DNA from: Thermoanaerobaculia bacterium
GTDB lineage: Bacteria; Acidobacteriota; Thermoanaerobaculia; Multivoradales; UBA5704
NCBI GenBank assembly: GCA_036275055.1
Contig: DASUEN010000171.1
Location: 42,307-106,306 of the forward strand
Reading direction: 5' to 3'
Length of the DNA stretch: 64,000 nt
The notes under the pieces were generated by a model, which saw only the letters and a list, made by a program, of their open reading frames with translations, did not search any database and had not been told where the DNA came from. Below, piece after piece: positions 46,318-63,517 of this stretch. Each line of letters opens with the position of its first letter. Position 1 is the stretch's first letter. Position numbers and translations under genes: made by a program.

Positions 46318-49300
46318 TCCGTCACCGGCGACGGCTCTCCGATCACCTTTTTCGGGCGACTCTTGCGCACGGTGAACAGCGCTCCCAGGCGCGAGAAGAC
46401 CTTCGAGTTCGCCCAGTCGTCGAAGATGCTGTAACTGACCGGCGTGCCGATCAGCGTCAGCAGGAGCGAGAGGAGCTGGCCGCCCAGGATCACCGAGGCG
46501 ATGGCCCGGTTCGTCCCCGCTCCTGTACCGCTCGAAGCCACGAGCGGAATCATGCCGGCCACGAAGGCTAAGGTGGTCATCAGGATCGGCCGCAACCGGT
46601 CGCGGTTCGCCTCCCGAATGGCCTCCGCCCGCGGCATTCCCTGCGCCCGCAGCGCGTTGGTGTGGTCGATCTGCAGGATGGAGTTTTTCTTCACGATGCC
46701 GAACAGCACCAGGATACCGAGCATCGAAAAGATGTTGACCGACTGGTTCAGCATCAGGATCGACAGCAGCGCGAACGGCACCGTCATCGGCAGCGACAGC
46801 AGGATGGTGAACGGGTGGAGCCAGCTCTCGAACTGCGCTGCGAGGATCAGATACATGAAGATGATCGACAGCAGGAAGGCGATCATGAACGACGTGAACG
46901 CCTTCCCCTGCTCGCGCGAGCGGCCGGTCAAACCGGAGGAGAAGCCGGCCGGCATCTTGAGGTCCGCCGCCGTGCGGTTCAGCGTGTCGATGGCCGTCTG
47001 CGACGAGAAGCCCGGCCGCATGTTGGCGGTGACCATCACCTGCCGCCGCCGGTTGAGGCGATTGATCAGCGACGGGCCCGTGCCCTCGTTTAGAGTGACA
47101 AGATCGCGTAGCGGCACGGTGCCGCGGCTCAGCGAGGGCACTTCCATGGCGGCGATGGCCTGGGCGTTGTTGCGGTCGGCCTCGTCGGCCCGCACATGCA
47201 CCTCGTACTCCTCGCCTCCCTCGAAGTAGGAAGTGGCCTTCTGGCCGCCCACCAGGACGTTGAGCGAACTCGCGATGTCCTGCACCCGCACGCCGAGGTC
47301 GGCCGTCTTGTCGCGGTCGATGCGCACGCCGAGCTCGGGTTTGCCGACGATGAAGTTGGTGTCCACGTCGGTGGTGCCCGGCACCTTCACGAGCGCGGCC
47401 TTGAGCTTCTGCGCGTACTCGTTGAGCTTGTCGAGGTCGGGGCCGCCGATCCAGAACTGGATCTCGTTGTCCACGCCGTTGCCGAAGGCCGAGACCTGTG
47501 CCACCTGGGCCCGCACCTTGAGGGCTTCGTACTGCGGCAGGATCTCCTCGCGCACCCGCTGCATGAGGTGGAACTGATCTTCCTTGCGCGTCTTCGGATC
47601 GCTGAGCTGAACGTAAACCAGACCCAGGTTCAGCGTCTGCTGCGGGTCGTTGCCGATGGTGTTCACCGTCGTCACCACGCCGGGGAGCTTGCGCACCTGG
47701 CTGGCCACGGACTCCAGGATGGTCTGCGTCGTCGTCAGATTCGCTCCCTCGGGCACGCGCACCACCACCTGGAATTGCGACTCGTCGTCGTTGGGCAGGA
47801 AGTTTTTGTTCACCGCCATGAACAGGGGGATGGTGGAGAGGAACACCAGCACCATCGCGATCACCACCACCCAGCGGTGAGCCATGGCGAAGTCGAGCAA
47901 GCGCAGGTAGACGCGCTCGACGGCGGCGTAAACGCCCCGCTGGCGCGAGCCTTCCCCGGGCTGGGCGGTATCGTTCGACCGTAGCCACCGCGAGGCCAGC
48001 ATCGGCGTCAGCGTGAACGCGACGATCAGCGACACGGCGATGGCGAACGCCATGGTGATACCGAAGGAGTACATGAAGCGGCCCACGATGCCGCCCATGA
48101 AGGCCACCGGCAGGAAGACGGCGATCAATGACAGGCTGGTGGCGAGCACGGCGAGGCCCACCTCCTTGGTGCCCTCGACGGCCGCCTGCCGCGGCGTCAT
48201 CTTTTTCTCTTCCATGAAGCGGAAGATGTTTTCGAGCACCACCACCGCATCATCGATCACGATTCCCACCGCCAGCGTCAGCGCCAGCAGGGTGAGCACG
48301 TTGAGCGTGAAGCCCATGTACTTCATGGCGGCGAAGGTGGCGATGAGCGAGCTGGGGATGGCCACCGCCGAGATCAGCGTCGGCCGGAAGCGGCGCAGGA
48401 AGAGCCACACGATGCCGGCCGCGAACAGCGAGCCCACCATCAGGTGCTCTTTCACGGCGTCGACCGCGGCGACGATGAACTTCGACTGGTCGCGGACGAT
48501 CTCCGCGTGCCAGCCCGCGGGGATCTGCCCTTTGAGGTCCTCGAACCGCTCCTTGATGGCATCGACCACGGCGATCGTGTTGGTGCCTGACTGCTTGATC
48601 ACCTGCAGCACCACGGCCGGCTTGCCGGCGACGGTGGCGACCGACTCGGCCTCTTCGACTCCGTCCTCGATGCGGGCGACGTCGCCCACCCGCACCGGGT
48701 AGCCGTTGCGGGTGGTAATCGGCAGGCGCGCGAAGTCGGCGGGCGTGCCGACGCGGCCGTAGGTGCGCAGCGTCAGGTCGCGACGGTTCTGGGCCACCTT
48801 GCCGCCCGGAATCTGCACGTTCTGGCTCCCCAGGGCGTTGACCACGTCCGCCGCCGTCAGGTTCAGGCTGTCGAGCTTCGCCGTGTCGGTGATCACGTTG
48901 ATCTGCCGCAGCCGCTGACCCACGAGCTTCACCTGGCCGACGCCGAAAACGGTTTCCAAACGCCGCTTCAGCACGCGGTCGGCATATTCCGAAATGTCGC
49001 GCTGCGAGGCGGGGCCCGAAAGCGCGATCGAGATCACCGGATCGGCGTCCGCGTTGATCTTTTGAATGATCGGCGGATCGGCGTCCTTGGGCAGGTTGGC
49101 CAGGATGGCGTTGACCTTGTCGCGCACCTCCTGGGCGGCCACGTCCGGGTTCTTCTCCAGCGTGAATTGGATCTGCACCAGCGACACGTTCTCCGAGGAG
49201 GTGGAGATCAACTGATCGATGCCGTTGATGGTGTTGACCGCCTCCTCGATCTTGTCGGTGACCTCGGTCTCCATCTCCTCGGGCGCGGCGCCCGGCAGAA

Positions 49301-49451
49301 CGGTGGTGATGACGACGAAGGGGAACTCGACGTTCGGAAAGCGGTCGACGCCGAGCTGGAAGTAGGCGAAGATGCCTACCACCACCAGCGCGAGAATGAG
49401 CACCGTCGCGAAGACGGGCCGGCGGACGCAGAGCTCAGCGAGCTTTTGCAT
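46314..49451 (-). CDS. RND efflux permease (AcrB/HAE1-like)
   Basis: ATG 49451 follows GGGGAGGA. MQKLAELCVRRPVFATVLILALVVVG...; 12-TM plus two large loop architecture; 1045 aa. Confidence 0.95.
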   Translation of the reverse strand: MQKLAELCVRRPVFATVLILALVVVGIFAYFQLGVDRFPNVEFPFVVITTVLPGAAPEEMETEVTDKIEEAVNTINGIDQLISTSSENVSLVQIQFTLEKNPDVAAQEVRDKVNAILANLPKDADPPIIQKINADADPVISIALSGPASQRDISEYADRVLKRRLETVFGVGQVKLVGQRLRQINVITDTAKLDSLNLTAADVVNALGSQNVQIPGGKVAQNRRDLTLRTYGRVGTPADFARLPITTRNGYPVRVGDVARIEDGVEEAESVATVAGKPAVVLQVIKQSGTNTIAVVDAIKERFEDLKGQIPAGWHAEIVRDQSKFIVAAVDAVKEHLMVGSLFAAGIVWLFLRRFRPTLISAVAIPSSLIATFAAMKYMGFTLNVLTLLALTLAVGIVIDDAVVVLENIFRFMEEKKMTPRQAAVEGTKEVGLAVLATSLSLIAVFLPVAFMGGIVGRFMYSFGITMAFAIAVSLIVAFTLTPMLASRWLRSNDTAQPGEGSRQRGVYAAVERVYLRLLDFAMAHRWVVVIAMVLVFLSTIPLFMAVNKNFLPNDDESQFQVVVRVPEGANLTTTQTILESVASQVRKLPGVVTTVNTIGNDPQQTLNLGLVYVQLSDPKTRKEDQFHLMQRVREEILPQYEALKVRAQVAQVSAFGNGVDNEIQFWIGGPDLDKLNEYAQKLKAALVKVPGTTDVDTNFIVGKPELGVRIDRDKTADLGVRVQDIASSLNVLVGGQKATSYFEGGEEYEVHVRADEADRNNAQAIAAMEVPSLSRGTVPLRDLVTLNEGTGPSLINRLNRRRQVMVTANMRPGFSSQTAIDTLNRTAADLKMPAGFSSGLTGRSREQGKAFTSFMIAFLLSIIFMYLILAAQFESWLHPFTILLSLPMTVPFALLSILMLNQSVNIFSMLGILVLFGIVKKNSILQIDHTNALRAQGMPRAEAIREANRDRLRPILMTTLAFVAGMIPLVASSGTGAGTNRAIASVILGGQLLSLLLTLIGTPVSYSIFDDWANSKVFSRLGALFTVRKSRPKKVIGEPSPVTD

Positions 49452-50385
49452 GGGATTCCTCCCCTCCCAGCTCGACGCGCGCGAAAAGGCCAGGACGCAG
49501 GCGCCCATCGGAGTTGGGGAATTCGGCCTCGGCGAAGAAGGTGCGGGTGGACGGATCGATGACGCCGCCCAAGGTCTTGATCCGTCCACTGAACGTCTCG
49601 CCGGGATAAGGGTCCACACGGGCGATGATCGGTTGCCCGGTCTTAAGGTTCGGAAGGTACCGCTCGGGAACGCTGAAACGGAGCTTGAGCGGCGCCGTCT
49701 GCACGATGACGAAAGCGACGCCGGCTTCGCCGAGGCGCTCGCCCGGATTGGTCTTGCGCTGATCGACGACGCCGGTGATCGGCGAGCGGATCACCGCATC
49801 TTCCACTTTCTGGCGGGCCAGGGCCAACGCCGCCTCGGTCGATTGGCGTGCGGCCTGGGCCTGGTCCAGCGCGGCCTGGGCTTTGTCGAACGTGGCCTGT
49901 GGGATCGATTCGTTGGCGAGCAGCCCCTTCTTGCGGGTCCACTCGCGGCGGGCGTCGTCCTCGGCCGCCTTGGTCCGGGCGAGGTCCGCCTGGGTGCGCT
50001 GCACGTCGAGCTTCAGGTACTCGGTCTCCAGCACGAGCAGGGGCTGCCCCTTGCTCACCCGCTGCCCGGCGTCCACGTACACGGTCGCCACGCGACCCGG
50101 CGTCTTGGGCGCCACCTGGGAGCTTGCCGGGGAGACGAACTCGCCCGTGGGCTCCAGGCTGGAGAGAGCGCCCTTCGCGTTCGTCTCCTCTGGTTTCGTT
50201 GCGGCGGCCGGTGCCGGGGTGCCCGGGGTCTCCGGCTGGGCGAGCTTGGCGACGTCGGCCGGCAGGGCCGGGGTGGGAGTTGCCGCGGTGGCCGCAGCGT
50301 CCTTCGACTTATCGTGAGCGCAGGCGGCGGCCAGCATCAGGGTGATCAGCGTGGCCGCGGCGAGCGCGAGGCTCTTCCCATTCAT
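49435..50385 (-). CDS. RND efflux membrane fusion protein (HlyD family), lipoprotein
   Basis: ATG 50385 follows GAGGAG. Lipobox LMLAAAC; coiled-coil hairpin and beta-barrel pattern. It overlaps the RND start by 17 nt. Confidence 0.9.
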   Translation of the reverse strand: MNGKSLALAAATLITLMLAAACAHDKSKDAAATAATPTPALPADVAKLAQPETPGTPAPAAATKPEETNAKGALSSLEPTGEFVSPASSQVAPKTPGRVATVYVDAGQRVSKGQPLLVLETEYLKLDVQRTQADLARTKAAEDDARREWTRKKGLLANESIPQATFDKAQAALDQAQAARQSTEAALALARQKVEDAVIRSPITGVVDQRKTNPGERLGEAGVAFVIVQTAPLKLRFSVPERYLPNLKTGQPIIARVDPYPGETFSGRIKTLGGVIDPSTRTFFAEAEFPNSDGRLRPGLFARVELGGEESHAKAR

Positions 50386-51728
50386 TTCGTGCTCTCCTCG
50401 GTGAGGATCAGAGTCTTCAAAGTTCCAACCGCGGACCACACGTTCAGCTCGGCCAGGTCGCGGTTCAAGGTTCCGTTCACCACCGCCCGGCGCGAGGAAG
50501 CGAGGGCGGCTTCCGACGTTTGCAGGTCGAGCGAGGTCGCTTCCTGGGCGCGGTAGAGCTCGAAGCTCTGGCCGTACTCGGCCTCGGCCGCGGCGAGCTG
50601 CTCCTTGGCGAGGGCTAGGTCCGTCTCCGCCGTCTTCAGCTCGAGCAGGGCCTGGAGGACGTCCTCCCGCACCTGGCGCTTGGCCTCCGCCAGTGCGATC
50701 TCCGCCTGGCGCTGGCGCTCGCGGGCCACGGCCACCTTGGCCGAGATCTCGCCGCTGTCGAAGATCGGCATCGTCAGCTTGATCGAGAGCGACGCCGTCC
50801 GGTCCGCCGGGAACGACGTGCGCTGGCTGACGAAGTCTCCCTCGGCCCGCACGGTGGGGAGGCGGGCCGCCTGCTGCTTCGAGGTCTCGAGCTGGGCGAT
50901 CTGGAACGCCAGGTCCGCCTGCTGGACAGTGGGATGATTCGCCTGCGCTTGGGCTACCAGCTCCTCGGCGGGCGGCAGGGGCGGGAACTTGAGGTCCGGC
51001 GACGCCACCTGGAGCGTGGCGCCCGCGGGCTGGTCGAGGGCGAGGTTCAGCCGCAGGCGGCTGGCCGCGAGGTCCCGGCTTTGGACCGCCGCCGCCAGGG
51101 CCCGTTCGGCCGCCTTGGTATCCGTCTCCACCCGCAGCACGTCCACCTTGGTCTGCTCTCCCGCTTCATAGAAGGCCTGTGCCTGCTTGCGCCGGCGTGC
51201 GGCCAGCTCCAGGTTCCGCTGCTCCACGTCGACCAGGGCCTGCCCCTGGACGATCCCCAGGTAGTTGGAGGCCGTCGCCAGCAGGACCATGTCCTCCGTC
51301 GACCGCAGCCCCACCTCGGCGCTGGTCACTCCCATGCGCGCCTGGCGCAGCGCCTTGAGCTCCCGGGCACCGGCGTAGATGGGCTGGCTGAAGATGAGCC
51401 GCGCGTTCCAGTCGTTGCGCGGCAGGATCGTCGCCCGGAAGCCGTTCACGTCGAAAGCCACCTCCTGGCCGTTGCGGATGACCGCGCTTTCGAGGTCGAG
51501 GTGGGGCAAGATCGACGTCTTGAGCTGGCGCACCTGCGCTTGCGAGGTCGCCACTTGGGAGCGGGCCGTGGCCGTGGCCGCATTCGCCTCCAGCGCCCGC
51601 CGCAGCGCCTGTTGCAGCGTCAGCGCCGGAGCGGGCTCCTGGGCGCGGGCGGCGGGGGATGGCAACGACAACAGCGCGAGGGCCAGAGCGATTCCGCCCC
51701 TCCCGCCAGGTCTCGTCCAAAAATTCAT
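50382..51728 (-). CDS. TolC-family outer membrane efflux protein
   Basis: ATG 51728. Signal peptide, then two OEP repeats (LTLQQALRRALE...; VLQALLELKTAETDL...). ATGA overlap with the MFP gene. Confidence 0.9.
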   Translation of the reverse strand: MNFWTRPGGRGGIALALALLSLPSPAARAQEPAPALTLQQALRRALEANAATATARSQVATSQAQVRQLKTSILPHLDLESAVIRNGQEVAFDVNGFRATILPRNDWNARLIFSQPIYAGARELKALRQARMGVTSAEVGLRSTEDMVLLATASNYLGIVQGQALVDVEQRNLELAARRRKQAQAFYEAGEQTKVDVLRVETDTKAAERALAAAVQSRDLAASRLRLNLALDQPAGATLQVASPDLKFPPLPPAEELVAQAQANHPTVQQADLAFQIAQLETSKQQAARLPTVRAEGDFVSQRTSFPADRTASLSIKLTMPIFDSGEISAKVAVARERQRQAEIALAEAKRQVREDVLQALLELKTAETDLALAKEQLAAAEAEYGQSFELYRAQEATSLDLQTSEAALASSRRAVVNGTLNRDLAELNVWSAVGTLKTLILTEESTK

Positions 51729-51962
51729 GTCTCTTTTTCCTCCCGAGCCTCTCCTTTGCACCGAGAGGGTGCGAGGAGGGCCGGCCTACTGCCTTTTCGT
51801 CCAACGGCTGATTTCAAGGTAGATTTGCCGCGAAAGCTCCCGGGACCTCTCCGCCCCGCCCGAACCTTGGACATACGGTAGAAACCGGCTGAAGTTTACG
51901 GCGGAACCTTGTGCCCTTTCCTGCGTTCTATGAGAATCGTCCGGCGAGGAGAACCATTCCCC

Positions 51963-52874
51963 ATGATCCAGAAACGTCACATCCTGCTCCCGGCCCTCAC
52001 CGTCCTCACCCTCGCCTCTGGGGTCTCCGCCCAAACGGCGGCGAAGCCTCCCGGCTACCCCGAGCTGTTCGACCAGGCCTCGGTCTCCTACGAGAAGGGG
52101 GACTGGGCGCACTGTGGCGAGCACTTCGCCGCCGCCGCCAAGGCCGCCCCCCTCGATCGCCAGGCCGCCCGCGCCCTTTCCGGCGCCGCCCGCTGCCATG
52201 CCCATGGGGGTGACAAGGACGCCGCCCTCCACGACCTCGAGCAGGCTTCGTCTCGCGGCTACCGCGACGCCGACCGCGTCGCCACCGATCCCGACTTCGA
52301 TTCCCTGCGGCAGGACCCGCGCTGGAAGACCTTCGTCGACCAGGTGAGGGCCCGCGACACGGCGGCTCGCAAGGGCCCCCTCAACCCGGAGCTGGAGAAA
52401 CTCTACAACGAAGATCAGGCGGACCGTGCACCCGAGATGGGGAAGGTCGATTGGAGCGTCGTCGCCAAGCGGGACGAGGAGCGCCGCAAGCGGGTACTGG
52501 AGATCGTGGCCCAGGGGGGCACCAAGGAGGCCCCCGACTACGTTCACGCCGCCATGGTCCTCCAGCACGGCCAGGCGCCCGAGGACTTCCAGCACGCCCA
52601 TGAGTGGTGCCTCAAAGCCGTGGAGCTCGATCCGGACTACCCCGGCGCCCGCTGGCTCGCCGCCGCCGCCCAGGACCGCTACCTCATGAACCTCGGTAAG
52701 CCGCAACTCTACGGCACCCAGTTCAAGCGGGACCCTAAGGGCGGCCCCTGGTATCTCTACCAGGTTGATCCTACGATCACCGATGAAGAGCGAGCGAAGT
52801 GGGACGTGCCGCCCCTCGCCCGGGCCAAGGCGCGCGTCGAGGCGCTCAATGGGGGGACGTTCCAGCCGCATTGA
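51963..52874 (+). CDS. Secreted hypothetical protein (DUF6624-like, tentative)
   Basis: ATG 51963. Signal peptide MIQKRHILLPALTVLTLASGVSA, then a helical-repeat-like body. Confidence 0.55.
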   Translation: MIQKRHILLPALTVLTLASGVSAQTAAKPPGYPELFDQASVSYEKGDWAHCGEHFAAAAKAAPLDRQAARALSGAARCHAHGGDKDAALHDLEQASSRGYRDADRVATDPDFDSLRQDPRWKTFVDQVRARDTAARKGPLNPELEKLYNEDQADRAPEMGKVDWSVVAKRDEERRKRVLEIVAQGGTKEAPDYVHAAMVLQHGQAPEDFQHAHEWCLKAVELDPDYPGARWLAAAAQDRYLMNLGKPQLYGTQFKRDPKGGPWYLYQVDPTITDEERAKWDVPPLARAKARVEALNGGTFQPH

Positions 52875-52876
52875 CT

Positions 52877-53040
52877 CAGAGGGTGTTTGGAAACGCATCC
52901 TGAATCCGGGGGTCTGCGCTTGGAATCCTCTCCCCCTCTCCCGTCTCCCGGCGGGGGGTAGGGTGGGAGACCGGAGAGGGGGAGAGGATTCCAAGCGCAG
53001 AACGGCCGGATTTTCCAAACTCCCTCTCAGACATTGACTC
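52877..53040. repeat. ~160-bp imperfect palindrome (REP-like, same GGAGAGGG flavour as 22487-22612)
   Basis: The inner arm CTGCGCTTGGAATCCTCTCCCCCTCTCCCGTCTCCC (52925-52960) faces its reverse complement at 52976-53011 with one mismatch. Outer arms are AGAGGGTGTTTGGAAA and TTTTCCAAACTCCCTCT. Confidence 0.85.
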
Positions 53041-53182
53041 GGAGGTATCGGCGCTCGCGACTAGCACAATCTTGCTATCTCGCATGGGAACGCTCCCCAG
53101 GCCAAACACTCTCCGTCTACCTCGCGTAGGAAATACCAGCGGCACTCTGCCGCCGAAGGTGTCTTCGCAGAAAGGAGACGAC

Positions 53183-54463
53183 ATGGCCTTCAAGTTGCGG
53201 ATCCTGTTCGACGGCCTCTGCGTTTTCGTTCCAAACACCGACGAGGGCAAAGGGATGCGGGTGCTGGTGATCGATGGACGCGCGCCCGGCCTCGCCTCGA
53301 ACGGTGAGAGCCAGGTCTCGCATATCCCGAGCCTGCGCTTCGCCATTGCCGACCTCGCCGCCGCCGATCACCAGCCAGCCTACCGCATCGACTACAGCTC
53401 GGCGGACCCCGTCCCGAAAGGCGCCTGGCTCCTCAACGGCGACGATCTCGAGATCCGCGTCGACGGGGCGCCGCTGGCCGACGGACCGCTCACCATCTTG
53501 CGGTCGGAGCCGAGCCGCGACTTCGCGCTCGTTCCGAGCATGCGGATCATCTATCCGGAGACTCTGGGAATCGAAGTCCGGGAGGAGTGCCTGGATCGAA
53601 ACCTCAAGCGGCTGGCCGATGCGGGCCTGGCGGCGCGAATCCGTCTCCAGAACGGCGTCGTCGGCGCTTGGGACGGCGCGGATGGCCGGTACATCTCCAG
53701 CGACGAGTTCATGTTCATCGGCACTCCGGGTTTCCATCGTCAAAGGGTTGCCGGCTGCGTCTTCTTCGAGACCGAGGTCGCGGGAGAGACAGTGGAGATC
53801 GTCTCGCGTCAGCGCGGTCATGGACCTGTTTTCCAGCCCGCCGATGGGCAAACGTTGGAAATCAGCCTCCGGAACGATCCGCCGGAGGAACTCATGGGGG
53901 CACGTCCGACGAACCCTGAGGCTGACTATGACTTCGAGTTGGTTTACAAGGTCGCCAAGAATCCCCCGGCCGAGCTCCGCGTCCCAGTTCTGGCCACGGC
54001 GGTCTGGCCCGGCGCGACGGCGGCGGCAACCGCTACAGAGCAGACCGGCGATTCGCCCGCGACGTTCAACCCAAGCAGCGAGGCGGACCCGCCCGGCAAA
54101 TGCATGCCGGCCAGCTACAATCCCAGCAGCGAGGCCGACCCGCCCGGCAGCAGGTGCATTCCGGCGAGCTACAATCCCAGTAGCGAAGCGGACCCTCCCG
54201 GTCGTTGCATGCCGGCGAGTTATAACCCGAGCAGTGAAGCGGGTGGCCGGCCGTATTGCTCCGGGGCAGAGTACAACCCGAGCCAGGAGGCGGGTGGCAT
54301 AGACACCGTCCGTTGTAATCCTGTGGCATACAACTCCAGTAGTGAAGCCGGAAAATACCCTGTCGTCTGCCTGCCTGCCGAATTCAACCCGAATCACGAA
54401 GCTGGTGGGTTCGCTCGTCCACTCTGCTTCGGCGTAATCTATAACCCAACTCCCGAAGCCTGA
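53183..54463 (+). CDS. Hypothetical 426-aa protein: unknown ~290-aa N-terminal domain plus seven tandem single-Cys peptide units delimited by [F/Y]-N-P-x-x-E-A
   Basis: AAAGGAG RBS and ATG 53183, with no signal peptide. The C-terminus reads ATF|NPSSEADPPGKCMPASY|NPSSEADPPGSRCIPASY|NPSSEADPPGRCMPASY|NPSSEAGGRPYCSGAEY|NPSQEAGGIDTVRCNPVAY|NSSSEAGKYPVVCLPAEF|NPNHEAGGFARPLCFGVIY|NPTPEA*. Confidence 0.75.
   Translation: MAFKLRILFDGLCVFVPNTDEGKGMRVLVIDGRAPGLASNGESQVSHIPSLRFAIADLAAADHQPAYRIDYSSADPVPKGAWLLNGDDLEIRVDGAPLADGPLTILRSEPSRDFALVPSMRIIYPETLGIEVREECLDRNLKRLADAGLAARIRLQNGVVGAWDGADGRYISSDEFMFIGTPGFHRQRVAGCVFFETEVAGETVEIVSRQRGHGPVFQPADGQTLEISLRNDPPEELMGARPTNPEADYDFELVYKVAKNPPAELRVPVLATAVWPGATAAATATEQTGDSPATFNPSSEADPPGKCMPASYNPSSEADPPGSRCIPASYNPSSEADPPGRCMPASYNPSSEAGGRPYCSGAEYNPSQEAGGIDTVRCNPVAYNSSSEAGKYPVVCLPAEFNPNHEAGGFARPLCFGVIYNPTPEA
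54065..54460 (+). repeat. Coding tandem repeat (7 units of 17-19 codons plus a terminal half unit)
   Basis: See the 53183..54463 CDS. The units are conserved at the amino-acid level and diverged at synonymous sites. Confidence 0.85.
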
Positions 54464-54465
54464 TT

Positions 54466-56355
54466 TCAACCCGCGGGGAGCGGCGTTACAACCGCTCCCC
54501 GGTCGGGCTCGCCCTCGAGGATGCCGTTCGCAATCCAGAGGGCGAAGTCCTGGCGCGGGGGGGCGACGCAACCTGTCAGGCAGTCCATCGCAATCTCGAG
54601 GGTGGTCACGGAAACCTGCGCAATCTCCACTGCCACGGCTTCCGCGGGCAGATAAACGTTCTGGAGATTGTCCCATCCCTCCCGCTCGGCGGCGCCTGGG
54701 ACCGACCAGCCTCCCGCGAAATGGTTTCCGAAGTACGTCTTCCCACCAACCTCGACTCGCAGGGCTAGACGATTGACGATCGCCGGGATCTCGGGAGTGC
54801 CACTACCCAGAGGGCCGGGCGGATCGGTCCAGGCGAGGGTGATCTTGAGTGGCTGCGCGGCGTCGGCGAGGCGGATCGGCCAGATTCTCTGCTGGCCTGA
54901 GGAGGTAAAGAGAAGGGTTTGATCGAGCCAGGCGCGCCTCAGATTGGGGGCCAGGACGTTCTCGAGGTTGAGCCTTCCCCAGCCTTGCCGGCGATTGGGA
55001 ATGGGGCCGCCGTCGCCCGTATCCACGGCGCCGTTGACGATCAGGGCCCGCAGCAAGGCCGGTGACGGATCGCGGCCGGCCGTGGTCCGCCACCACTGCG
55101 TCAGCAGGGCGCAGGCTCCCGAGGTCAGCGCTGTGGCTCCAGAGGTGCCCCCTCCCCAGGTGAGCCGTCGGCTCAGGTACTTTCTTTCTCCCGGCTGGGC
55201 GCCATGGTTGGCCGTGGCAGACCATTGCCCAGGCGCCACCACGTGAGGACGGATGCGGCCATCGCCGCAATTGCCGAGACTGCTCGCATAAAAGCCGGTG
55301 TCGTAGTCGCCCGAATAGACCGCGGAGATGGTTTCGGCTTCGATTCCGCCGTCGCGCGGCCGGTAGGTGCTCGAGTTGCCGGTTACCAGGACGTTTTTCG
55401 CCCCTGCAGGACGGTTGAGGCCCTTGGTTCCTTCGTTTCCGGCAGCGAAACAGATGGTGAGAGGCTTCGGTGTCGGTCCCCTCGGATCGGAATTGCGCAC
55501 CATCCGATCGTAGAGTGCCTCCTCGGAACCATAGTCCATGGGGTTGCGCGTGCCCTTGCCAAAGGAGTTGTTCTGCACCGTCCCCGGGGCGCCGGAAGGA
55601 CCCGCCTCGGTTACCGTTTGGCGGCAGACCTCCTCGGGCGGGTCGAAGCGGTCTTGAGCCAGCAGGTCCGCCGCGGGCGCCACCCCCAAGCCGTAAAGGT
55701 ATCCGGCCTCGTCGCGCTCCTCCAGATAACGGCCGGCCGCGAGCCCTGCCATTGCCGTACCGTGCCAGGATTTCTTACCGTTCGCGAGGTCGCGAATACG
55801 GCCGGTAAAGGCGGGGTGATCGACGTTGACTCCGCTATCGACGATGCCGATCGTCACTCCCGCGCCGTCGAGCCCGTGCGCCCTCAGCCATGCGAGATAG
55901 GAGCCGCTCGGTATGCCTTCCCGGTCGTATTGGCCTGCGAGGATGAGGCCGGTCACCTCGTCCTGAAGGACCGGCGGCTCCCGGCTTTCGACCGCCAGTA
56001 CGTGCGGCACGGCGAGGACTCTCCGCTGCGCCTCTTCCGTCAAGCGTGCTGGTATACGCAGGAAGTACACCCCGGTGGAAGGCTGCGCGGTCAGAACGAC
56101 CCAGACGCTTCGGCTTCCACCCTTGGGGAAATCAACGCGCGGCTTCATCGCCGGAGTCAGCGGCACGACCTGGCGAACGAAAGAGAGCCCCTCTGCCGTG
56201 CGAAGTGCAGCGTCTGTGCCCGAGCCGAGATAGGTCCCGGCAGATCGATACTGGAGAAGCTCTACGCCGCGGCGGCGCAACGCCTCCGGCCAGCAGGGCT
56301 CGACCGGGCCGGCCAACTCCACGTAAGCAAGCGAGCGGTGTCCAGAGTGGCTCAT
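54466..56355 (-). CDS. Subtilisin-like S8 serine peptidase, no signal peptide, with N-terminal pro-like region and C-terminal beta domain
   Basis: The start is taken at ATG 56355 (MSHSGHRS...), because the longer ORF overlaps the divergent amidase gene. Catalytic triad contexts: GIVDSGV (Asp), SWHGTAMAG (His), GGGTSGATALTSG (Ser). Confidence 0.85.
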   Translation of the reverse strand: MSHSGHRSLAYVELAGPVEPCWPEALRRRGVELLQYRSAGTYLGSGTDAALRTAEGLSFVRQVVPLTPAMKPRVDFPKGGSRSVWVVLTAQPSTGVYFLRIPARLTEEAQRRVLAVPHVLAVESREPPVLQDEVTGLILAGQYDREGIPSGSYLAWLRAHGLDGAGVTIGIVDSGVNVDHPAFTGRIRDLANGKKSWHGTAMAGLAAGRYLEERDEAGYLYGLGVAPAADLLAQDRFDPPEEVCRQTVTEAGPSGAPGTVQNNSFGKGTRNPMDYGSEEALYDRMVRNSDPRGPTPKPLTICFAAGNEGTKGLNRPAGAKNVLVTGNSSTYRPRDGGIEAETISAVYSGDYDTGFYASSLGNCGDGRIRPHVVAPGQWSATANHGAQPGERKYLSRRLTWGGGTSGATALTSGACALLTQWWRTTAGRDPSPALLRALIVNGAVDTGDGGPIPNRRQGWGRLNLENVLAPNLRRAWLDQTLLFTSSGQQRIWPIRLADAAQPLKITLAWTDPPGPLGSGTPEIPAIVNRLALRVEVGGKTYFGNHFAGGWSVPGAAEREGWDNLQNVYLPAEAVAVEIAQVSVTTLEIAMDCLTGCVAPPRQDFALWIANGILEGEPDRGAVVTPLPAG

Positions 56356-58756: not shown

Positions 58757-60048
58757 ATGCTCATCTTGCTCAAGATTGTCGCCGCCTCGCTAGGAATGGC
58801 CGCGTTGCTGTCAAATGCAGCCAGTGCCCAAGGTCAGGGAGCTAGCGGCTCCACGAACGAATCGGTCTACCAGACCCTCGCGGAGCATGGCGTCACCGCC
58901 TCGCTCGTCTACGATGGCGAAGGATTCGCGGACCTGTCAGGTGGTGCGCGACGGGGCGCGACGTACCTCGGCAACCTGAACCTTCTGCTCACGCTTGATG
59001 GAACGCCTCGCCAGTTGGCGCGGTGCCACGGTTTTCATCGATGGCCTCGATATCCATGGGGGCCGGCCGAGCCGGTTTGCCGGGGACGCCCAGGGCGTGA
59101 GCAACATCGAAGCTGCGCCGGAATGGAAGCTCGAAGAGGCGTGGATTGAGCAGAACCTTTTCGGTAACAGGTTTTCGGCCCTGGTCGGGCTTTACGATTT
59201 GAACAGCGAGTTCTACCACCTCCACGCCGCGGACCTCTTCCTCAATTCGTCGTTCGGCATCGGCCCGGAGATCTCGCAGAGCGGTAAGGGCGGCCCGTCC
59301 GTCTTCCCGAATACGTCGGTCGGTGCCCGCTTCGAGGTCAAGCCCATGGAAGGTGTTGTGCTTCGTGGCGCCGTGCTCGACGGCGTTCCTGTGGAGCGTC
59401 CGAGTGGGAGGGAAGTTTTCGCGAAGGCCGACGGCCTGCTTATCGTCAGCGAGGCGGCTTTCCTCTATCGCCCGGCCCCGCCGGACGCGTCGCCGCGGAT
59501 GCCACACCGGTTTCTCCTGGGCCGAGAAGCGCAATTGCCTCCTTATGACGACAAACTGGCGGTCGGCGTGTGGCACTACACGTCGAGCTTCGACGACCTC
59601 GTTCGAACGCGAGAGGACGGCACGCCGCTGACCCACCAGGGAAGCTCGGGCGCGTACGTGATTCGGTGATGCGATCGTGTACAAGGAAGAGTCTGGGCGC
59701 CAGATGCGAGTGTTCGGCCAGGCCGGCCTCGGCGATTCTCGCGTGAATCGTTTCGGCCTGTATACAGGTTGCGGGGTCGACCTTGCCGGCTGGGTCCCGG
59801 GCCGCCAGCAGGATGAAATCGGATTCGCCGTGGCGGCGGCCCGCAACGGCAGCCCGTTCATCGACCAACAGCGGCAAGCGGGGCAACGCGCCGGCAGGTC
59901 CGAAGTGACTCTCGAGCTGGCGTACCGTTCCAGCGTTACTTCCTGGCTCAACGTTCAACCCGATTTGCAGTACGTCTTCAATCCGAACACCGATCCGCGA
60001 GTGGCGAATGCCTTGGTCTGTATGATCCGTATCGAAGTTTCGTTCTGA
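58757..60048 (+). pseudogene. OprB-family carbohydrate-selective porin disrupted by two +1-type frameshifts (or sequencing errors)
   Basis: Three consecutive frames carry one continuous porin. Frame 1 holds the signal peptide to ...NLNLLLTLD (to ~58996). Frame 2 holds ERLASWRGATVFIDGLDIHGG...SSGAYVI (to ~59663). Frame 3 holds (GDAI)VYKEESG...NVQPDLQYVFNPN...IRIEVSF*. C59664 is a candidate inserted base. Confidence 0.6.
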
Positions 60049-60082
60049 GCGCGTTTCCGAGAACCTGACACGCGGGCAGTGC

Positions 60083-60111
60083 TTGACATCGACGGGTCGC
60101 CGTTCTACAGT
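60083..60111 (+). promoter_or_regulatory. Sigma-70-type promoter for the Cys-rich peptide gene
   Basis: TTGACA (60083-60088), N17, TACAGT (60106-60111). A GGAGG RBS at about 60138 precedes ATG 60150. Confidence 0.45.
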
Positions 60112-60149
60112 TACAAAACAACTGTTGTTTCCCCTTCGGAGGGAACGAT

Positions 60150-60371
60150 ATGAAGAAGAAGTCGCCTTCCAAGCTCCACCTCAACCGTGAAACGCTGCGA
60201 TCCCTGACGGAGTCGGCTCTCGCCCAGATCCCGGGTGCCACCTGCAGCGCCTGCAGGACCAACGAGACCAATTGCAGTCAGACGGACCCCTGCAGCAGTC
60301 CCTGCACTGTAGAGTGCTCGAGGTACTGCCCCAGCCCCGTTCTCACAGCGGAACCTGCCGGGGGATTGTGA
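60150..60371 (+). CDS. Stand-alone precursor-like peptide (73 aa): Lys-rich leader of the KLxLNRETLRxL type plus a Cys/Ser/Thr-rich C-terminal region
   Basis: MKKKSPSKLHLNRETLRSLTESALAQIPGA|TCSACRTNETNCSQTDPCSSPCTVECSRYCPSPVLTAEPAGGL. A GC hairpin GGCCCCGAG/CTCGGGGCC (60372-60391) starts directly after the stop. Confidence 0.55.
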   Translation: MKKKSPSKLHLNRETLRSLTESALAQIPGATCSACRTNETNCSQTDPCSSPCTVECSRYCPSPVLTAEPAGGL

Positions 60372-60453
60372 GGCCCCGAGCCCTCGGGGCCCTCGCCACT
60401 CACTAGTCGCTCTCTGCTCGCCGGGGTGGGCCGGGTTCCCCCCAGTCTACTTC

Positions 60454-60483
60454 TTGACCGGAACATACCGAAAACGGTATAAT
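60454..60483 (+). promoter_or_regulatory. Sigma-70 promoter with palindromic operator for the toxin-antitoxin pair; leaderless start
   Basis: TTGACC (60454-60459), N18, TATAAT (60478-60483). The palindrome ATACCGAAAACGGTAT (60465-60480) overlaps the spacer and -10. ATG 60489 is only 5 nt after the -10. Confidence 0.5.
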
Positions 60484-60488
60484 GCGTC

Positions 60489-60872
60489 ATGGCTCGGTTC
60501 CCGACGACCACGGAAAAGCCCCTCCATTGGGTCGGCGCGTCAAAGAAGGACTTGCTGACGTTTCCTGGCGATGTGGTGGACGACTTCGGATATGCCCTGA
60601 GCGTCGTCCAGCATGGCGGTACGCCACCTTCTGCCAAGATGTGGAAGGGTGAAGGCCCGGGAGTCTTCGAGCTGGTCGAAGAGTATCGTGGCGATGCGTT
60701 CAGGGCCGTCTACACGGTGCGCTTTGAGAAGGCGGTTTATGTCCTGCACTGCTTCCAGAAGAAATCGCCCTCAGGAATGCGCACGGCTAAACAGGATATC
60801 GACCTGATCCATGAGCGCCTGAGAACGGCACAAGCAGACTATGAGGTGCGCTATGCGAGAAAAGAAGACTGA
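60489..60872 (+). CDS. RelE/ParE-superfamily toxin of the phage Gp49-like (DUF891) type
   Basis: KPLHWVGASKKDLLTFPGDVVDDFGYAL...GVFELVEEYRGDAFRAVYTVRFEKAVYVLHCFQKKS is the family hallmark. Confidence 0.8.
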   Translation: MARFPTTTEKPLHWVGASKKDLLTFPGDVVDDFGYALSVVQHGGTPPSAKMWKGEGPGVFELVEEYRGDAFRAVYTVRFEKAVYVLHCFQKKSPSGMRTAKQDIDLIHERLRTAQADYEVRYARKED

Positions 60873-61188
60873 GACGGTGGATGCTGGGAGCGGTGACGTT
60901 CTGGTGGATCTTGGTTTCCCGGATGCTGACGAGAGGAAGCTGCGTGTACAGCTAGCGATGCAGCTCAACGAGCTGATCGCAGCCTGCCGTTTGACGCAGG
61001 CCCGCGCGGCAAAGCTTTTCGGCATTCCGCAGCCCCATGTCTCGGAGCTCAAGCACTACAAGCTTAACCGGTTCTCCTCCGAACGATTGCTGCATTTCGT
61101 CACTCTCCTCGATCGTGACATCGAAATCATCATCCGGCCGAAGGCCAAGGGGCACGCATCGGGAGTCGTATTTGTGTCGGTCGCCTGA
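60853..61188 (+). CDS. XRE-family HTH antitoxin partner
   Basis: VLVDLGFPDADERKLRVQLAMQLNELIAACRLTQARAAKLFGIPQPHVSELKHYKLNRFSSERLLHFVTLL. It overlaps the toxin 3' end. Confidence 0.8.
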   Translation: MREKKTETVDAGSGDVLVDLGFPDADERKLRVQLAMQLNELIAACRLTQARAAKLFGIPQPHVSELKHYKLNRFSSERLLHFVTLLDRDIEIIIRPKAKGHASGVVFVSVA

Positions 61189-61366
61189 GCTTTCTCCGCT
61201 CTCAAGCACCGTCCGCATTCATTCCGCCCGCGGCGCGGGGCCGGAGAGGAGGAGGCGTAGCCCTGCTATCATGTCGCGATGGTTCGGTCGTTCAAGGACC
61301 GCGGTGCTGGCAGGATGAAGCCGGCTTGGCCGCGACTACAATAAGTTCTTCTTGGAGGGACCAACC

Positions 61367-61765
61367 ATGCCCAGGGCCCAAGACTGCCAATCCCACAGCG
61401 CCCACCTGGGAGTGCTGTCGACCCAGAGCTGGATTCAGACGCTTCCTGAGAAGACCGGCCACTCGCTGGAGGAGTGGATCCAACTCGTCCAGAAGGAGGG
61501 CCGCCTACGGAGATCAAGTGGCGGGACTGGCTCAAGACTGAGCACAAGCTGGATACCAACTCCGGTTGGTGGATCGCCGAGCGCTCCTTTGGCAAGGTCG
61601 TGCCCCTCGGCCTAGAAGGACACCCCCGTCACCGGCCGCCTCATCGACACCGGCAGCTTTGCCAAGAAGGACCGCATCACGCATCGTTTCGCCATCACCA
61701 CGTTGGCGGAGATTGACGGCGAGGTGCGGCGGTGGCTGAATAGGGCGTACGAGATGGATGCATAG
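61367..61765 (+). pseudogene. Degraded duplicate of the DUF4287/DUF5655 gene (1-nt deletion plus ~230-nt internal deletion)
   Basis: Nucleotide-level similarity to 58119..58742 runs from the RBS region to the stop. GAAGGAAGGGCCGCCCACGG in the intact copy is GAAGGAGGGCCGCCTACGG here (one base shorter). The segment between TTTGGCAAGG and GAAGGACACCCCCGTCACC is missing. Confidence 0.75.
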
Positions 61766-61768
61766 GTT

Positions 61769-61879
61769 ATGAAGCAGACATCATCTCATACTGACTGGGA
61801 AAGTCTCGCATTGATGAAGGATGACGAGATCGATTATTCAGATATCCCGTCACTTGCGGGTGAATTCATCCAAGTATAG
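61769..61879 (+). pseudogene. Possible truncated BrnA/DUF4415-like antitoxin fragment (36 codons)
   Basis: MKQTSSHTDWESLALMKDDEIDYSDIPSLAGEFIQV* resembles the TDWERL...DEEIDYSDIPEL N-terminal motif of that family. It lies at the left edge of low-GC island 2. Confidence 0.3.
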
Positions 61880-62030
61880 GTGGCTGAATAGATAGAATCT
61901 CCTGAATATGTACACGTCAATGTGTGTATAGACTCTAGACACAGCGGCTAAGATGTGCTAAAAGTTGAGTAGCCTGAATCTTTGTTCCCAGTGAACGCCT
62001 ATTGCCATCTCCATTGGTTTAGGAGCAGTT

Positions 62031-63194
62031 ATGGACGCCGCGTTGAAGGCTGATAAACAAGAAGGTCTCGATGAGTTTTGGAAGAAGAATCTTGGGCTTC
62101 TGAGTTGGATGGTGCTGCTGTTCTTCGGAGGTAGCTTGCTCGGCATCTACTACGCAAGCATTGGCTATTTTCCTGAGATCGACTGGCAGGCCTCGTTGAG
62201 CTATCTTTTTGCCATGTCGGCGATTGGCTTGATCATGTTGGTCATCTATGGCCTCCTTCTGTTTGTGCCTGGATGGATCTGGTCCGAGGCGTTGGTTCAT
62301 CATTACCTGATGGAGGAAACGGTTTGTAGGGAAGACGAGAGTCCGAGAAAAGGCAAGGTTTTTGTTATCTTTGGATTCCCCTTTATTTTGACCGTAGTGG
62401 CGGCGCACTGGGCTCTCGCAACGCGGAGCTTTAGTGCTTGGTCGGTGACCATGAGCGCTGTAATCTTTTCGGCAGCCTGGGTATGCCGAGCTCTATGTGG
62501 TGCAACAGCTTCAAGAATTCCGCTTTCATCGAGCCAGAAAGGTCAAAAGACAACTCCGGCGGTCTCTGTCCAGGTTCGCAAGGTTAAGATAAATCAAAAC
62601 GAAATACCGCTTATGGATCTCATAGAACGCCTTGGATTTTTCGAGCTGTCTCTCCTGTCCAGCATCGCTTCCTTGGCCGCTATTCATTATTTGGCGGCTC
62701 AAGACCCCAGGAAAGATGCGTGGATGCTGGCGATCTGTAGCTTGGTAATGGTCGTGGCAAATTTTCTGGTGGCGATTTACTTCAGGGATAAGCGTCGAAC
62801 CGCAGTTGTCTGCGCAGTGGCCTCAGCCTTTCTTCTTCTTGTGTTGGGCAACATTCTTGTAACGAGGCGAGAGGCTCAGCTACCCTGCCAGATTCTGCGC
62901 CTCTTCGGTGTCGGATCTGGACAGTCCGTAACTCTGATTCTGACCAAGGAAGCCGCTGAAGTAGTTAAGTTGGAGGACATACCTTTTGAGCCCATCGATC
63001 ATAAAGATGGTGCGGTGAAGGTCGAGGCCGCTGAAATTCTATCCCGCCTGGGTTCAGAGTATTTTCTGCACGCTTACGGCAAGCGGTTCTCTCTTCCCAA
63101 GGCTATGGTCCTCTCTTGGTCTGTGGACGATACTCCCAAGGAGCAGCTATGCCCTCTTCCTTTCCTCGATGTCCAGATCTGCCCGCTGAAGTAG
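62031..63194 (+). CDS. Hypothetical polytopic membrane protein (about 8 TM segments plus a ~100-aa soluble C-terminus)
   Basis: 387 aa with an AGGAG RBS and AT-rich codon usage. No family recognised. Confidence 0.6.
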   Translation: MDAALKADKQEGLDEFWKKNLGLLSWMVLLFFGGSLLGIYYASIGYFPEIDWQASLSYLFAMSAIGLIMLVIYGLLLFVPGWIWSEALVHHYLMEETVCREDESPRKGKVFVIFGFPFILTVVAAHWALATRSFSAWSVTMSAVIFSAAWVCRALCGATASRIPLSSSQKGQKTTPAVSVQVRKVKINQNEIPLMDLIERLGFFELSLLSSIASLAAIHYLAAQDPRKDAWMLAICSLVMVVANFLVAIYFRDKRRTAVVCAVASAFLLLVLGNILVTRREAQLPCQILRLFGVGSGQSVTLILTKEAAEVVKLEDIPFEPIDHKDGAVKVEAAEILSRLGSEYFLHAYGKRFSLPKAMVLSWSVDDTPKEQLCPLPFLDVQICPLK

Positions 63195-63257
63195 AGTCCG
63201 AGCGTCAGGCGCTCGTCACAGAATAACTGCGTCAGTCCTTACTCAGCTCCTGAAGGC

Positions 63258-63491
63258 TTAGGGGGCTGAAGTGCGCGCCAAACCCCGAAACGCAAGGCTT
63301 GCCCGGATATCCGCCTCCTCGATTGAAGGGTACTGACGCAGGATCTCCTCCCGGCTCTCGCCAGCGCTCAGGAACTCCAGAATCGTCTGGACCGTGATCC
63401 GCTTGCCGCGGATGGTGGGCTTGCCGTTGCAGACGGTGGGATCGATCGTGATCCGGCTCTCCAGCGGGCTGTTCGACGCGGGGGTAGGCAT
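63258..63491 (-). CDS. DUF433 family protein (antitoxin-like), orphan
   Basis: ITIDPTVCNGKPTIRGKRITVQTILEFLSAGESREEILRQYPSIEEADIRASL is the DUF433 hallmark. No DUF5615/PIN-like partner lies downstream. Confidence 0.75.
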   Translation of the reverse strand: MPTPASNSPLESRITIDPTVCNGKPTIRGKRITVQTILEFLSAGESREEILRQYPSIEEADIRASLAFRGLARTSAP

Positions 63492-63517
63492 GACAAGGGG
63501 ATTATACTCCCCCAAGC

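Follow-up and report, generated by a model that had tools for sequence, protein, structure and literature searches.

Among the peptides that are made by ribosomes and modified after translation (RiPPs), the cyanobactins are made from a precursor, PatE, that carries several hypervariable cores with conserved recognition sequences between them, and the associated proteases PatA and PatG are cytoplasmic S8 enzymes. Borosins of the OphMA/SonM type are encoded in minimal cassettes, with fused or split precursors and a serine peptidase as partner (10.1101/2021.12.24.474128; PMC8429565). In the BURP-domain cyclases of plants, an autocatalytic domain is joined to tandem cores that contain an aromatic residue, and split forms occur as well (PMC10107690; PMC11253845). 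In fungi, the units of kexin-processed tandem-repeat precursors, e.g., alpha-factor, dikaritins, and epichloecyclins, are excised by S8-family proteases at conserved inter-unit sites, and RiPPs are among them (PMC10540207). Proteases are also found next to bacterial gasdermins, which have a short C-terminal inhibitory peptide: 43 of 50 adjoin proteases of the C14 or CHAT type, frequently as TPR fusions, and the neighbors of gasdermins in fungi are subtilases (10.1101/2021.06.07.447441; PMC8851545). Here, we analyze a locus that recalls several of these systems. It is located on a 64-kb stretch of contig DASUEN010000171.1 (the window) from a soil acidobacterium of the class Thermoanaerobaculia, and consists of two convergent genes, one for a 426-aa protein with a folded N-terminal domain and seven tandem cysteine-containing units, the other for an S8 subtilase.

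Our analysis confirms that this feature is real, conserved, and rare. As judged from sequence and gene order, the pair would constitute a two-gene, protease-coupled peptide-precursor module, the protein family of which is so far undescribed in the literature searched. Tentatively, and with a confidence just short of even, we read the 426-aa protein as a precursor of multiple cores that comes with its own recognition or modifying domain and is cut by the neighboring subtilase, i.e., as a RiPP-like system. In the following, related loci and proteins are referred to as Lnnn and Pnnnn; the coordinates of all features are collected in Table 1.

A preliminary description of the window, made from its sequence, had reported a 426-aa protein without signal peptide that ends in seven units of 17-19 residues with exactly one Cys each, bounded by eight copies of [F/Y]-N-P-x-x-E-A. 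The open reading frame (ORF) call and the unit lengths bear this out, and a hydrophobic N-terminal segment is absent from both the precursor and the S8 protein. The motif needs a correction: its eight copies are found at residues 295, 312, 330, 347, 364, 383, 401, and 420, seven of them with N-P and the remaining one with N-S (YNSSSEA), giving [FY]N[PS]xxEA. The translation start at ATG 53183 agrees with the N-termini of all precursor homologs (M[AS]FKLRILF) and lies 7 nt downstream of an AAGGAG Shine-Dalgarno sequence. The N-terminus was also considered as a signal or lipoprotein peptide, which was rejected, since the first two confidently predicted strands of the domain are located there and a lipobox is absent.

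Translating the whole window in all six frames gives eight copies of the motif, all of them inside the precursor gene. When the protein or its tail was shuffled 20,000 times, a single motif match appeared in approximately 0.2% of the shuffled sequences and more than one in none. Together with the register kept across homologs, this rules out that the repeat is due to chance or low complexity. Units 1-3 are near-identical, also at the DNA level, and Tandem Repeats Finder reports a 51-nt period at positions 54067-54242, which indicates recent tandem duplication.

A search of 5.8 billion proteins revealed 34 precursor homologs of 47-84% identity. All of them are unnamed or annotated as "hypothetical", and the named sources are Thermoanaerobaculia metagenome-assembled genomes. 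In agreement with the earlier proposal, the homologs keep the repeat region, and unit number varies from 1 to 17 while boundaries and spacing (17-20 aa) persist. The aromatic residue follows the Cys at a distance of 5 (Cys-x4-[YF]) in 233 of the 239 units of these 34 proteins. The unit consensus reads x-R-P-I-C-P-[PG]-x-x-[YF]-N-P-[SN]-x-E-A, with 72-97% conservation at the N-P-[SN]-x-E-A positions. Length varies only in the 5-8 residues from E-A to Cys, and semi-conservation is seen at the 2-3 positions just before the Cys. The conserved element is a motif of 12-15 residues, (P-x-x-)C-x4-[YF]-N-P-x-x-E-A, and more than a boundary.

The position of this motif relative to the end of the protein is conserved as well. 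Among 32 full-length close homologs, 31 end at Cys+11 with a C-terminal Ala, and 11 is also the modal distance from the last Cys to the end in distant relatives (25 of 68). Thus, wherever the tail were cut behind an internal E-A, the new end would resemble the native C-terminus. In 19 of 28 homologs, the first tail Cys has a Cys-less half-motif, x-S-x-E-A, 4-10 residues before it; the Cys-less FNPSSEA of the window protein is located as would be expected for a cleavage site that frees unit 1.

Domain and tail evolve at different rates. Between close orthologs and between tandem paralogs, of which L001, L002, and L017 contain two each, the domains are 88-98% identical, while the tails share 41-79% identity and differ in unit count. 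As far as sequence comparison goes, a conserved domain with a fast-diverging tail matches the pattern of conserved leader and hypervariable core. P0035 (locus L022), a member of a different clade, has its own array of 7-8 units with another consensus, AICGSAVYNAEDQ, and is also located by an S8 gene of the window type. Furthermore, units occur in ORFs that lack the domain. In L014, a repeat-only ORF of 171 aa (5843-6358) is placed between a two-unit domain gene and the S8 gene; it has a good Shine-Dalgarno sequence and is composed of a Pro/Ser-rich leader of approximately 60 aa and seven units. A second one in L009 (approximately 1890-2150; about 87 aa, three units) follows AAGGAG and ATG. The last unit of a third in L003 (approximately 9700-9984) is identical to the last one of L009, and its Shine-Dalgarno sequence and ATG are out of frame with the repeats; the leader may be frameshifted, or the ORF may be a pseudogene or an assembly error.

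Extending the search added little. A 47-sequence profile run against the 5.8-billion-protein set yielded only three additions (P0066, P0115, and the weak partial match P0116), and tblastn against plasmids and phages gave no match. With the narrower alignment as query, only six loci in genomes and six in metagenomes were found, from which we conclude that the family is rare.

The tail of the window protein is rich in Pro, Ser, Ala, and Gly, is disordered in the AlphaFold2 (AF2) model, and, used alone as a protein query, gave no matches, probably owing to composition filters. These properties would be those of a functionless low-complexity linker or C-terminal extension, with the S8 gene as an unrelated neighbor. 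This explanation is effectively refuted. Register and motif are kept over 239 units in 34 proteins, so that the disordered linker without conserved spacing, named in the preliminary description as the outcome that would speak against its proposal, is not what we find. Moreover, the motif is absent elsewhere in the window and nearly so from shuffled sequences, amplification took place separately in a distant clade, and the S8 gene is adjacent at all informative loci despite differing other flanks.

The convergent gene ends 2 nt from the precursor gene (stops at 54463 and 54466), as reported before and confirmed by the ORF call. Its product matches PF00082 (6e-32), and D173, H198, and S405 are all located in canonical motifs, such that the S8 triad is intact. 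In a phmmer search, residues 159-576 align with 1WMD and 5FAX at 1e-28 to 5e-29; KP-43 and SubHal are therefore the closest solved relatives, over both the catalytic and the C-terminal domain. With a D/H/S triad domain and a KP-43-like C-terminal domain, the protein is a KP-43-type subtilase, and it is the only one of the two that can be filed in a known class. No recognizable sensor domain was found in it. When S8 orthologs are aligned, their N-termini coincide with the proposed start and show no signal-like or hydrophobic extension, and with signal peptides lacking in both proteins, precursor and protease are predicted to share the cytoplasm.

The N-terminal region of the S8 protein, approximately 160 aa without a family match, may by its position be a propeptide. 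It is kept in the orthologs of L005, L006, L018, and L020 and missing in the L003/L009/L013 sub-clade (approximately 120 residues). In L003 (12969-13493, minus strand) and L013 (5137-5661, minus strand), a 174-aa GTP-cyclohydrolase-II-like gene (PF00925, 5e-37) precedes the truncated S8 gene with a 4-nt overlap. A relationship of its product to the missing region was considered and rejected (BLASTP E=0.8), and the gene could represent an additional module component in this sub-clade.

Linkage of the two genes, postulated in the preliminary description, is strict. All 13 informative loci, i.e., the window and the 12 independent loci with enough flanking DNA (L001, L002, L003, L005, L006, L009, L013, L014, L017, L018, L020, and L022), have an S8 gene of the window type next to their one or two precursor genes. 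Each locus has a single S8 gene. The other flanking genes vary between loci, and thus the conserved module consists of one or two precursor genes and one S8 gene.

The N-terminal domain had been described as approximately 290 aa in size and not assignable. The latter holds in every library searched, while the AF2 model shortens the domain to approximately 270 aa, followed by a spacer. No match for it was obtained in Pfam, NCBIfam, PHROGs, or PADLOC, and the S8 protein matched only the generic "subtilase" model of PADLOC. Pfam searches over 67 family members gave no meaningful match, a family-profile search of the PDB sequences returned nothing, and the precursor family is not described in the literature searched. 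In the AF2 model of the window protein, the predicted local distance difference test score (pLDDT) of the domain is mostly 80-95. A better model was obtained for the one-unit homolog P0032 from a 67-sequence alignment (pLDDT 91.8, predicted template modeling score 0.91); it shows an almost all-beta fold. Foldseek with two models against PDB and against BFVD revealed nothing significant (best E 0.05-0.15, template modeling (TM) score <=0.15), so that the fold search suggested earlier ends with a confident model and without a relative.

The P0032 model also places the tail. Its last 16 residues, PLLCPPGVYNPEDAA (tail 290-305), lie on the domain with a pLDDT of 84-97, after a short linker of low confidence, and the motif is therefore predicted to be a ligand of the domain. 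Docking is deduced from this homolog because AF2 leaves the multi-unit tail of the window protein unplaced. In the 67-sequence alignment, where identities are mostly 20-35%, full invariance is seen solely at the tail Cys, and F9, G11, L12, H47, R152, G158, N232, Y256, and P269 are conserved at 90% or more. The near-invariant polar residues of the domain across the wide family are H47, R152, N231, and Y255 (numbering of the window protein). The sole hint at a modification of the core is an indirect one, an invariant Cys that in the model faces a domain in which H, R, N, and Y residues are conserved. The domain itself contains 2-5 Cys residues; C13, one of them, is kept by close homologs and not by the family at large.

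The same residues would also suit a role of the Cys inside the intact protein. According to this explanation, the tail is not released, the Cys takes part in intraprotein chemistry or binding, and the S8 enzyme serves as a turnover or quality-control partner; the options include an autocatalytic covalent staple between Cys and domain (e.g., a thioester or thioether with N231 or Y255), a metal or redox site made up of Cys and His, and an N-to-S acyl shift that leads to autoproteolysis at x|Cys, with the repeats supplying multiple reactive or valency sites. The sole invariant residue being the tail Cys, the high conservation of H47, R152, N231, and Y255, the motif as a predicted part of the fold, and exactly one Cys per unit all speak for it. 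Yet the strict pairing with a protease throughout the family is left without a reason, and the conserved S-x-E-A boundaries, the Cys+11 C-terminus, the Cys-less boundary before unit 1, and the domain-less repeat-only genes are left unexplained. We regard it as improbable.

Compared with described multi-core systems, the locus combines known traits in an unfamiliar way. It shares with the cyanobactins several cores per precursor, conserved recognition sequences between them, a cytoplasmic S8 protease, and hypervariable cores in an otherwise conserved locus, and there is a loose likeness between its S-x-E-A boundary with a subsequent G/A/S and the PatA site G(L/V)E(A/P)S. In contrast to the PatA/PatG pair, a single KP-43-type S8 enzyme is present, which scored 11.5 bits (E=0.089) with the PatA/PatG model TIGR03895, far below its cut-off of 421. 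A folded domain of 270 aa takes the place of the short leader, and the conserved part of the unit exceeds the variable part. Tandem cores with conserved flanks are present, while a PatE-like leader and any NCBIfam or Pfam precursor match are not. As stated in the preliminary description, the genes scanned within approximately 10 kb on either side of the window locus contain no radical SAM, YcaO, Lan, or P450 domains; a YcaO heterocyclase (PatD) and a PatF-type prenyltransferase were found neither there nor in the conserved module of the other loci. Likewise, ATP-grasp, LanB/C/M, and radical-SAM genes, as expected of graspetides, lanthipeptides, and radical-SAM RiPPs, are not among the scanned window-flanking genes or in the conserved cluster.

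With the borosins, the locus has in common a minimal cassette with a serine peptidase partner and, by analogy only, a large folded domain with a C-terminal core that inserts into it in the AF2 model and, through the stand-alone repeat genes, the coexistence of fused and split architectures. In the precursor, a domain of S-adenosylmethionine-dependent alpha-N-methyltransferases was detected neither by Pfam and NCBIfam nor as a methyltransferase-like fold by Foldseek. Further differences are the S8 enzyme instead of a prolyl oligopeptidase, the invariant Cys, and up to 17 tandem cores. BURP-domain cyclases and the window system share tandem cores on a domain, split forms, and an aromatic residue in the cores; the precursor domain has no Pfam match to BURP and lacks the pattern of four CH motifs. 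Whereas BURP cyclases are plant proteins with a C-terminal domain, the window protein is bacterial and cytoplasmic, with an N-terminal domain and a conserved Cys. A tandem-unit polyprotein and an S8-family protease, as proposed here, are also found in the kexin-processed precursors of fungi, and alpha-factor contains Glu-Ala spacer dipeptides. Those precursors are secretory, with signal peptide, Golgi Kex2, dibasic sites, and DUF3328/UstYa enzymes, as opposed to a cytoplasmic system with S-x-E-A boundaries and a fused domain of unmatched fold. Membership in the cyanobactins, borosins, BURP cyclases, or graspetides was rejected because the defining domains are absent. This is in good agreement with the earlier statement that the combination is not a recognized class, and no description of it was found in the literature searched.

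On this basis, the tentatively favored multi-core precursor would work as follows. The domain would carry a docking site for the C-terminal motif (P-x-x-)C-x4-[YF]-N-P-x-x-E-A-COOH, which in this lineage would have been amplified to seven tandem copies joined by 4-7 variable residues. Cleavage by the subtilase after each ...S-x-E-A boundary, first at the Cys-less half-motif before unit 1, would release seven different single-Cys peptides of 17-19 residues as products. Since each released peptide ends like the native protein, each could fit the pocket of the domain. The role of the domain itself may be that of an in-built leader or recognition element, and it possibly also catalyzes a reaction of the invariant Cys. 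The logic would be that of a multi-core RiPP or polyprotein precursor in fused and split forms, and it would also fit the repeat-only genes, the paralogs with near-identical domains and divergent tails, and the fast turnover of the tail.

A more ambitious version of the same idea, which we consider doubtful, would turn the system into a peptide factory that templates itself, and thereby into a new class of RiPPs, with an autocatalytic enzyme or receptor domain that acts on the invariant Cys of the unit currently in its pocket and processes its own re-docking tail. A unit would be recognized by its free ...N-P-x-x-E-A-COOH end exactly 11 residues past the Cys. Each cut after "EA" would free one modified 17-19-mer, whereupon the next unit could re-dock as a native-like C-terminus; the protein's own tail and separate repeat-only precursors would be processed unit by unit from the C-terminus inwards, and a small library of different Cys-modified peptides would result from a two-gene cassette. 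Alternatively, the same re-docking logic could represent a proteolytic countdown fuse on an effector.

A number of observations weigh against a multi-core precursor. In the AF2 model of the window protein, the whole tail has a pLDDT of less than 35 and is disordered. Just 4-7 residues per unit are variable, the conserved docking part making up most of the unit. Only about four near-invariant polar residues are found in the domain, which is more in line with a binding pocket than with an enzyme that depends on a cofactor, and a modifying enzyme, cofactor motif, or exporter is not evident in the conserved module. The remaining points come from distant relatives. An exhaustive phmmer search with residues 1-290 against 1.8 billion cluster representatives revealed 82 relatives, a few of them fragmentary or doubtful. 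Most are 270-350 aa long and consist of the domain and one C-terminal Cys motif; this one-unit form, with a tail of approximately 20 aa, is the commonest in the wider family, and is ancestral and most widespread. The genes of distant relatives are linked to TPR-CHAT genes, extracytoplasmic function (ECF) sigma and anti-sigma genes, and proteases of at least five classes, as is typical of conflict or regulatory systems, and some of the partner proteases (L024, L025) carry signal peptides. Hence, the RiPP-like reading of the preliminary description stands in part. Repeats, protease linkage, variation in unit number, and split genes agree with it; on the other side are the lack of any evident modification chemistry, enzyme signature, or exporter, and a one-unit ancestral form with varied proteases and TPR-CHAT/ECF-sigma genes, a context equally typical of protease-gated effectors in conflict systems and of RiPPs. 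Membership in the four known classes was rejected as well, and "RiPP-like" is therefore no more than a plausible working model.

The main alternative, which we regard as somewhat unlikely, is a protease-gated effector. It follows the logic, not the fold, of gasdermins: the beta-rich domain would be active (toxic, membrane-active, or oligomerizing), the docked Cys tail would inhibit it, and the neighboring protease would switch it on. Extra units would be spare latches that re-dock after each EA cut, which could raise the threshold or time the response, and stand-alone repeat proteins would be inhibitors in trans. The confidently docked tail of P0032, the prevalence of the one-unit form, and the native-like C-terminus regenerated by cutting after EA are consistent with this. 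So is the gene context, which is variable and includes PIN/PhdYeFM (L005, L014) and TIR/AAA (L013) genes. Distant members always have a protease as adjacent gene, each time of a different class (L012, L023-L026). TPR-CHAT genes are present in L011, L012, L015, L023, L024, and L025, and in L012, L023, and L025 genes for ECF sigma (PF07638) or zf-HC2 anti-sigma factors are close by. A constant substrate with interchangeable proteases is the same pattern as reported for gasdermins (10.1101/2021.06.07.447441; PMC8851545).

However, Foldseek with the pLDDT-92 model showed no likeness to gasdermins or any pore-former, and PADLOC has no match for the domain. The window S8 enzyme, being without a recognizable sensor domain, would be an unregulated protease beside a toxin. 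A simple latch would not be expected to expand to up to 17 units, to diversify quickly in its linkers, to have tandem paralogs distinguished by the tail alone, or to occur in repeat-only genes. Finally, DdvA, which is paired with the ECF sigma factor DdvS, is a periplasmic TPR-CHAT anti-sigma factor (PMC11506125), and five of the six TPR-CHAT proteins have an N-terminal membrane or signal segment like it (L011, L012, L015, L023, and L024; L025 as called is without); they may therefore be regulators and not the cutter of the family protein. This likeness to DdvA/DdvS is limited to distant loci. TPR-CHAT and ECF sigma/anti-sigma genes are absent from the window and from all Thermoanaerobaculia loci examined.

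Homology to gasdermins was rejected. The best PDB match by Foldseek has an E of 0.08 with a TM score <=0.15, no gasdermin is listed (the gasdermin content of the library is unchecked), and a Pfam match is missing. Structures of bacterial gasdermins have been solved. The resemblance, by analogy only, comprises a size of approximately 270-300 aa, a short C-terminal peptide packed on the domain, an adjacent protease of varying class, with CHAT (often together with TPR), C14, trypsin, and subtilase among the gasdermin neighbors, and variable contexts. In contrast to the N-terminal Cys of gasdermins (palmitoylated C3/C4), no Cys occurs at positions 2-5 of the precursor; the invariant Cys is in the tail, which is tandemly amplified and also encoded by tail-only genes.

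The six TPR-CHAT proteins are orthologous and have a "RLSGGF"-like motif near the N-terminus in common. Those of L011, L012, and L015, which were compared, are approximately 32% identical over approximately 1000 residues. In L025, the CHAT gene is preceded by a separate anti-sigma-like/TPR gene. L026, where the adjacent protease is Nal1-like, has no other linked genes noted. Sample ERZ25039606 contains, on separate contigs, both L001, a multi-unit locus of the Thermoanaerobaculia type with two paralogs and an S8 gene, and L024, an operon in which a distant one-unit family member is combined with CHAT and trypsin genes.

Table 1. Features of the two convergent genes in the window (positions of the window) and TPR-CHAT genes of approximately 1000-1130 aa linked to distant relatives (positions of the locus named).
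Feature	Position	Strand	Evidence or remark
Shine-Dalgarno sequence AAGGAG	53170-53175	+	7 nt 5' of the ATG, in GAAAGGAGACGACATG
Precursor gene, 426 aa (domain, spacer, seven tandem Cys units)	53183-54463	+	ORF call; ATG at 53183
Beta-rich N-terminal domain, residues 1-270	53183-53992	+	AF2; family and fold without match
Ala/Thr-rich spacer, residues 271-294	53993-54064	+	predicted disordered, AF2 pLDDT <50
Cys-less half-motif FNPSSEA, residues 295-301	54065-54085	+	proposed first cleavage boundary
Unit 1, DPPGKCMPASYNPSSEA	54086-54136	+	17 aa, Cys307
Unit 2, DPPGSRCIPASYNPSSEA	54137-54190	+	18 aa, Cys325
Unit 3, DPPGRCMPASYNPSSEA	54191-54241	+	17 aa, Cys342
Unit 4, GGRPYCSGAEYNPSQEA	54242-54292	+	17 aa, Cys359
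Unit 5, GGIDTVRCNPVAYNSSSEA	54293-54349	+	19 aa, Cys378; N-S replaces N-P in the motif
Unit 6, GKYPVVCLPAEFNPNHEA	54350-54403	+	18 aa, Cys396
Unit 7, GGFARPLCFGVIYNPTPEA	54404-54460	+	19 aa, Cys415; protein ends at Cys+11 with C-terminal Ala
KP-43-type S8 subtilase gene, 629 aa, convergent with precursor gene	54466-56355	-	PF00082 6e-32; phmmer to 1WMD/5FAX
S8 C-terminal domain, residues 471-629, KP-43 type	54469-54945	-	1WMD/5FAX alignment reaches approximately residue 575
S8 catalytic domain, residues 161-470	54946-55875	-	D173 55837-55839, H198 55762-55764, S405 55141-55143
S8 N-terminal region, approximately 160 aa	55876-56355	-	no family match; Pfam match begins at residue 164
L011, TPR-CHAT gene	673-4068		no other protease
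L012, TPR-CHAT gene	10058-13306		adjacent protease: short cytoplasmic S8; ECF sigma
L015, TPR-CHAT gene	1158-4472		no other protease
L023, TPR-CHAT gene	4734-7964		adjacent protease: C70 papain-like; zf-HC2 anti-sigma
L024, TPR-CHAT gene	4684-7977		adjacent protease: S1 trypsin-like, with signal peptide
L025, TPR-CHAT gene	3813-6818		adjacent protease: metzincin-like, with signal peptide; ECF sigma; tandem paralog of family protein

In the window, the pair is surrounded by an RND efflux operon, a TPR protein gene, a formamidase-like gene, and others, none of which recurs in related loci. The upstream RND efflux operon (46314-51761) was considered as a dedicated exporter and rejected, as it is conserved in no other locus. 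Approximately 8 kb upstream of the module, a gene on the minus strand (42499-45405) encodes a 968-aa fusion of Ser/Thr protein kinase and TPR, which is absent from the related loci seen. A nested palindrome (52869-53036) that is unique in the window lies between genes, a short way upstream of the precursor gene, with inner arms of 37 nt and 97% complementarity (52913-52949 and 52965-53001) and outer arms of 25 nt (52869-52893 and 53012-53036). It could terminate transcription of the TPR gene upstream, form a hairpin with a regulatory role, or be an element resembling miniature inverted-repeat transposable elements. Two stretches of the window, 30001-34000 and 60001-64000, have a G+C content of 0.56-0.60 compared to 0.63-0.73 elsewhere and may be horizontally acquired islands.

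Biosynthetic genes occur near the module at two related loci: a LanC-like gene (3837-4979) and a cluster resembling those for non-ribosomal peptide synthetases (NRPS) and siderophores (12530-20404) in L002, and ATP-grasp and Lant_dehydr (lanthipeptide dehydratase) genes approximately 5-10 kb from the module in L005 (16923-21374). Since neither set is conserved across loci, they probably belong to separate biosynthetic clusters. A few kb off the module, PIN/PhdYeFM toxin-antitoxin pairs are located in L005 (8476-9104) and L014 (460-1136), and TIR_2 and AAA_14/DUF4143 genes in L013 (6201-8632). These neighbors hint at accessory or defence-island-like surroundings.

Taken together, our findings describe a protease-coupled precursor or pro-protein that is built on a family and a fold without known relatives in the libraries searched. 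Its core protein has no annotation in these libraries and no structural relative, yet a very confident predicted fold and a sole invariant Cys on a docked tail. The Acidobacteriota are a rarely cultured phylum, the specialized biology of which is mostly unknown. If the peptide-factory reading were true, the locus would represent a new bacterial two-gene route to multi-core ribosomal peptides, and would provide a new recognition or modifying domain as well as a programmable cassette of 4-7 residues for genome mining and peptide engineering. If, instead, protease gating applied, the family would be a non-gasdermin effector family in protease-controlled cell-fate systems, with a tandem re-latching tail that is without precedent. 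Either way, a testable function would be given to intracellular KP-43-like subtilases and to the TPR-CHAT/ECF-sigma operons of Acidobacteriota.

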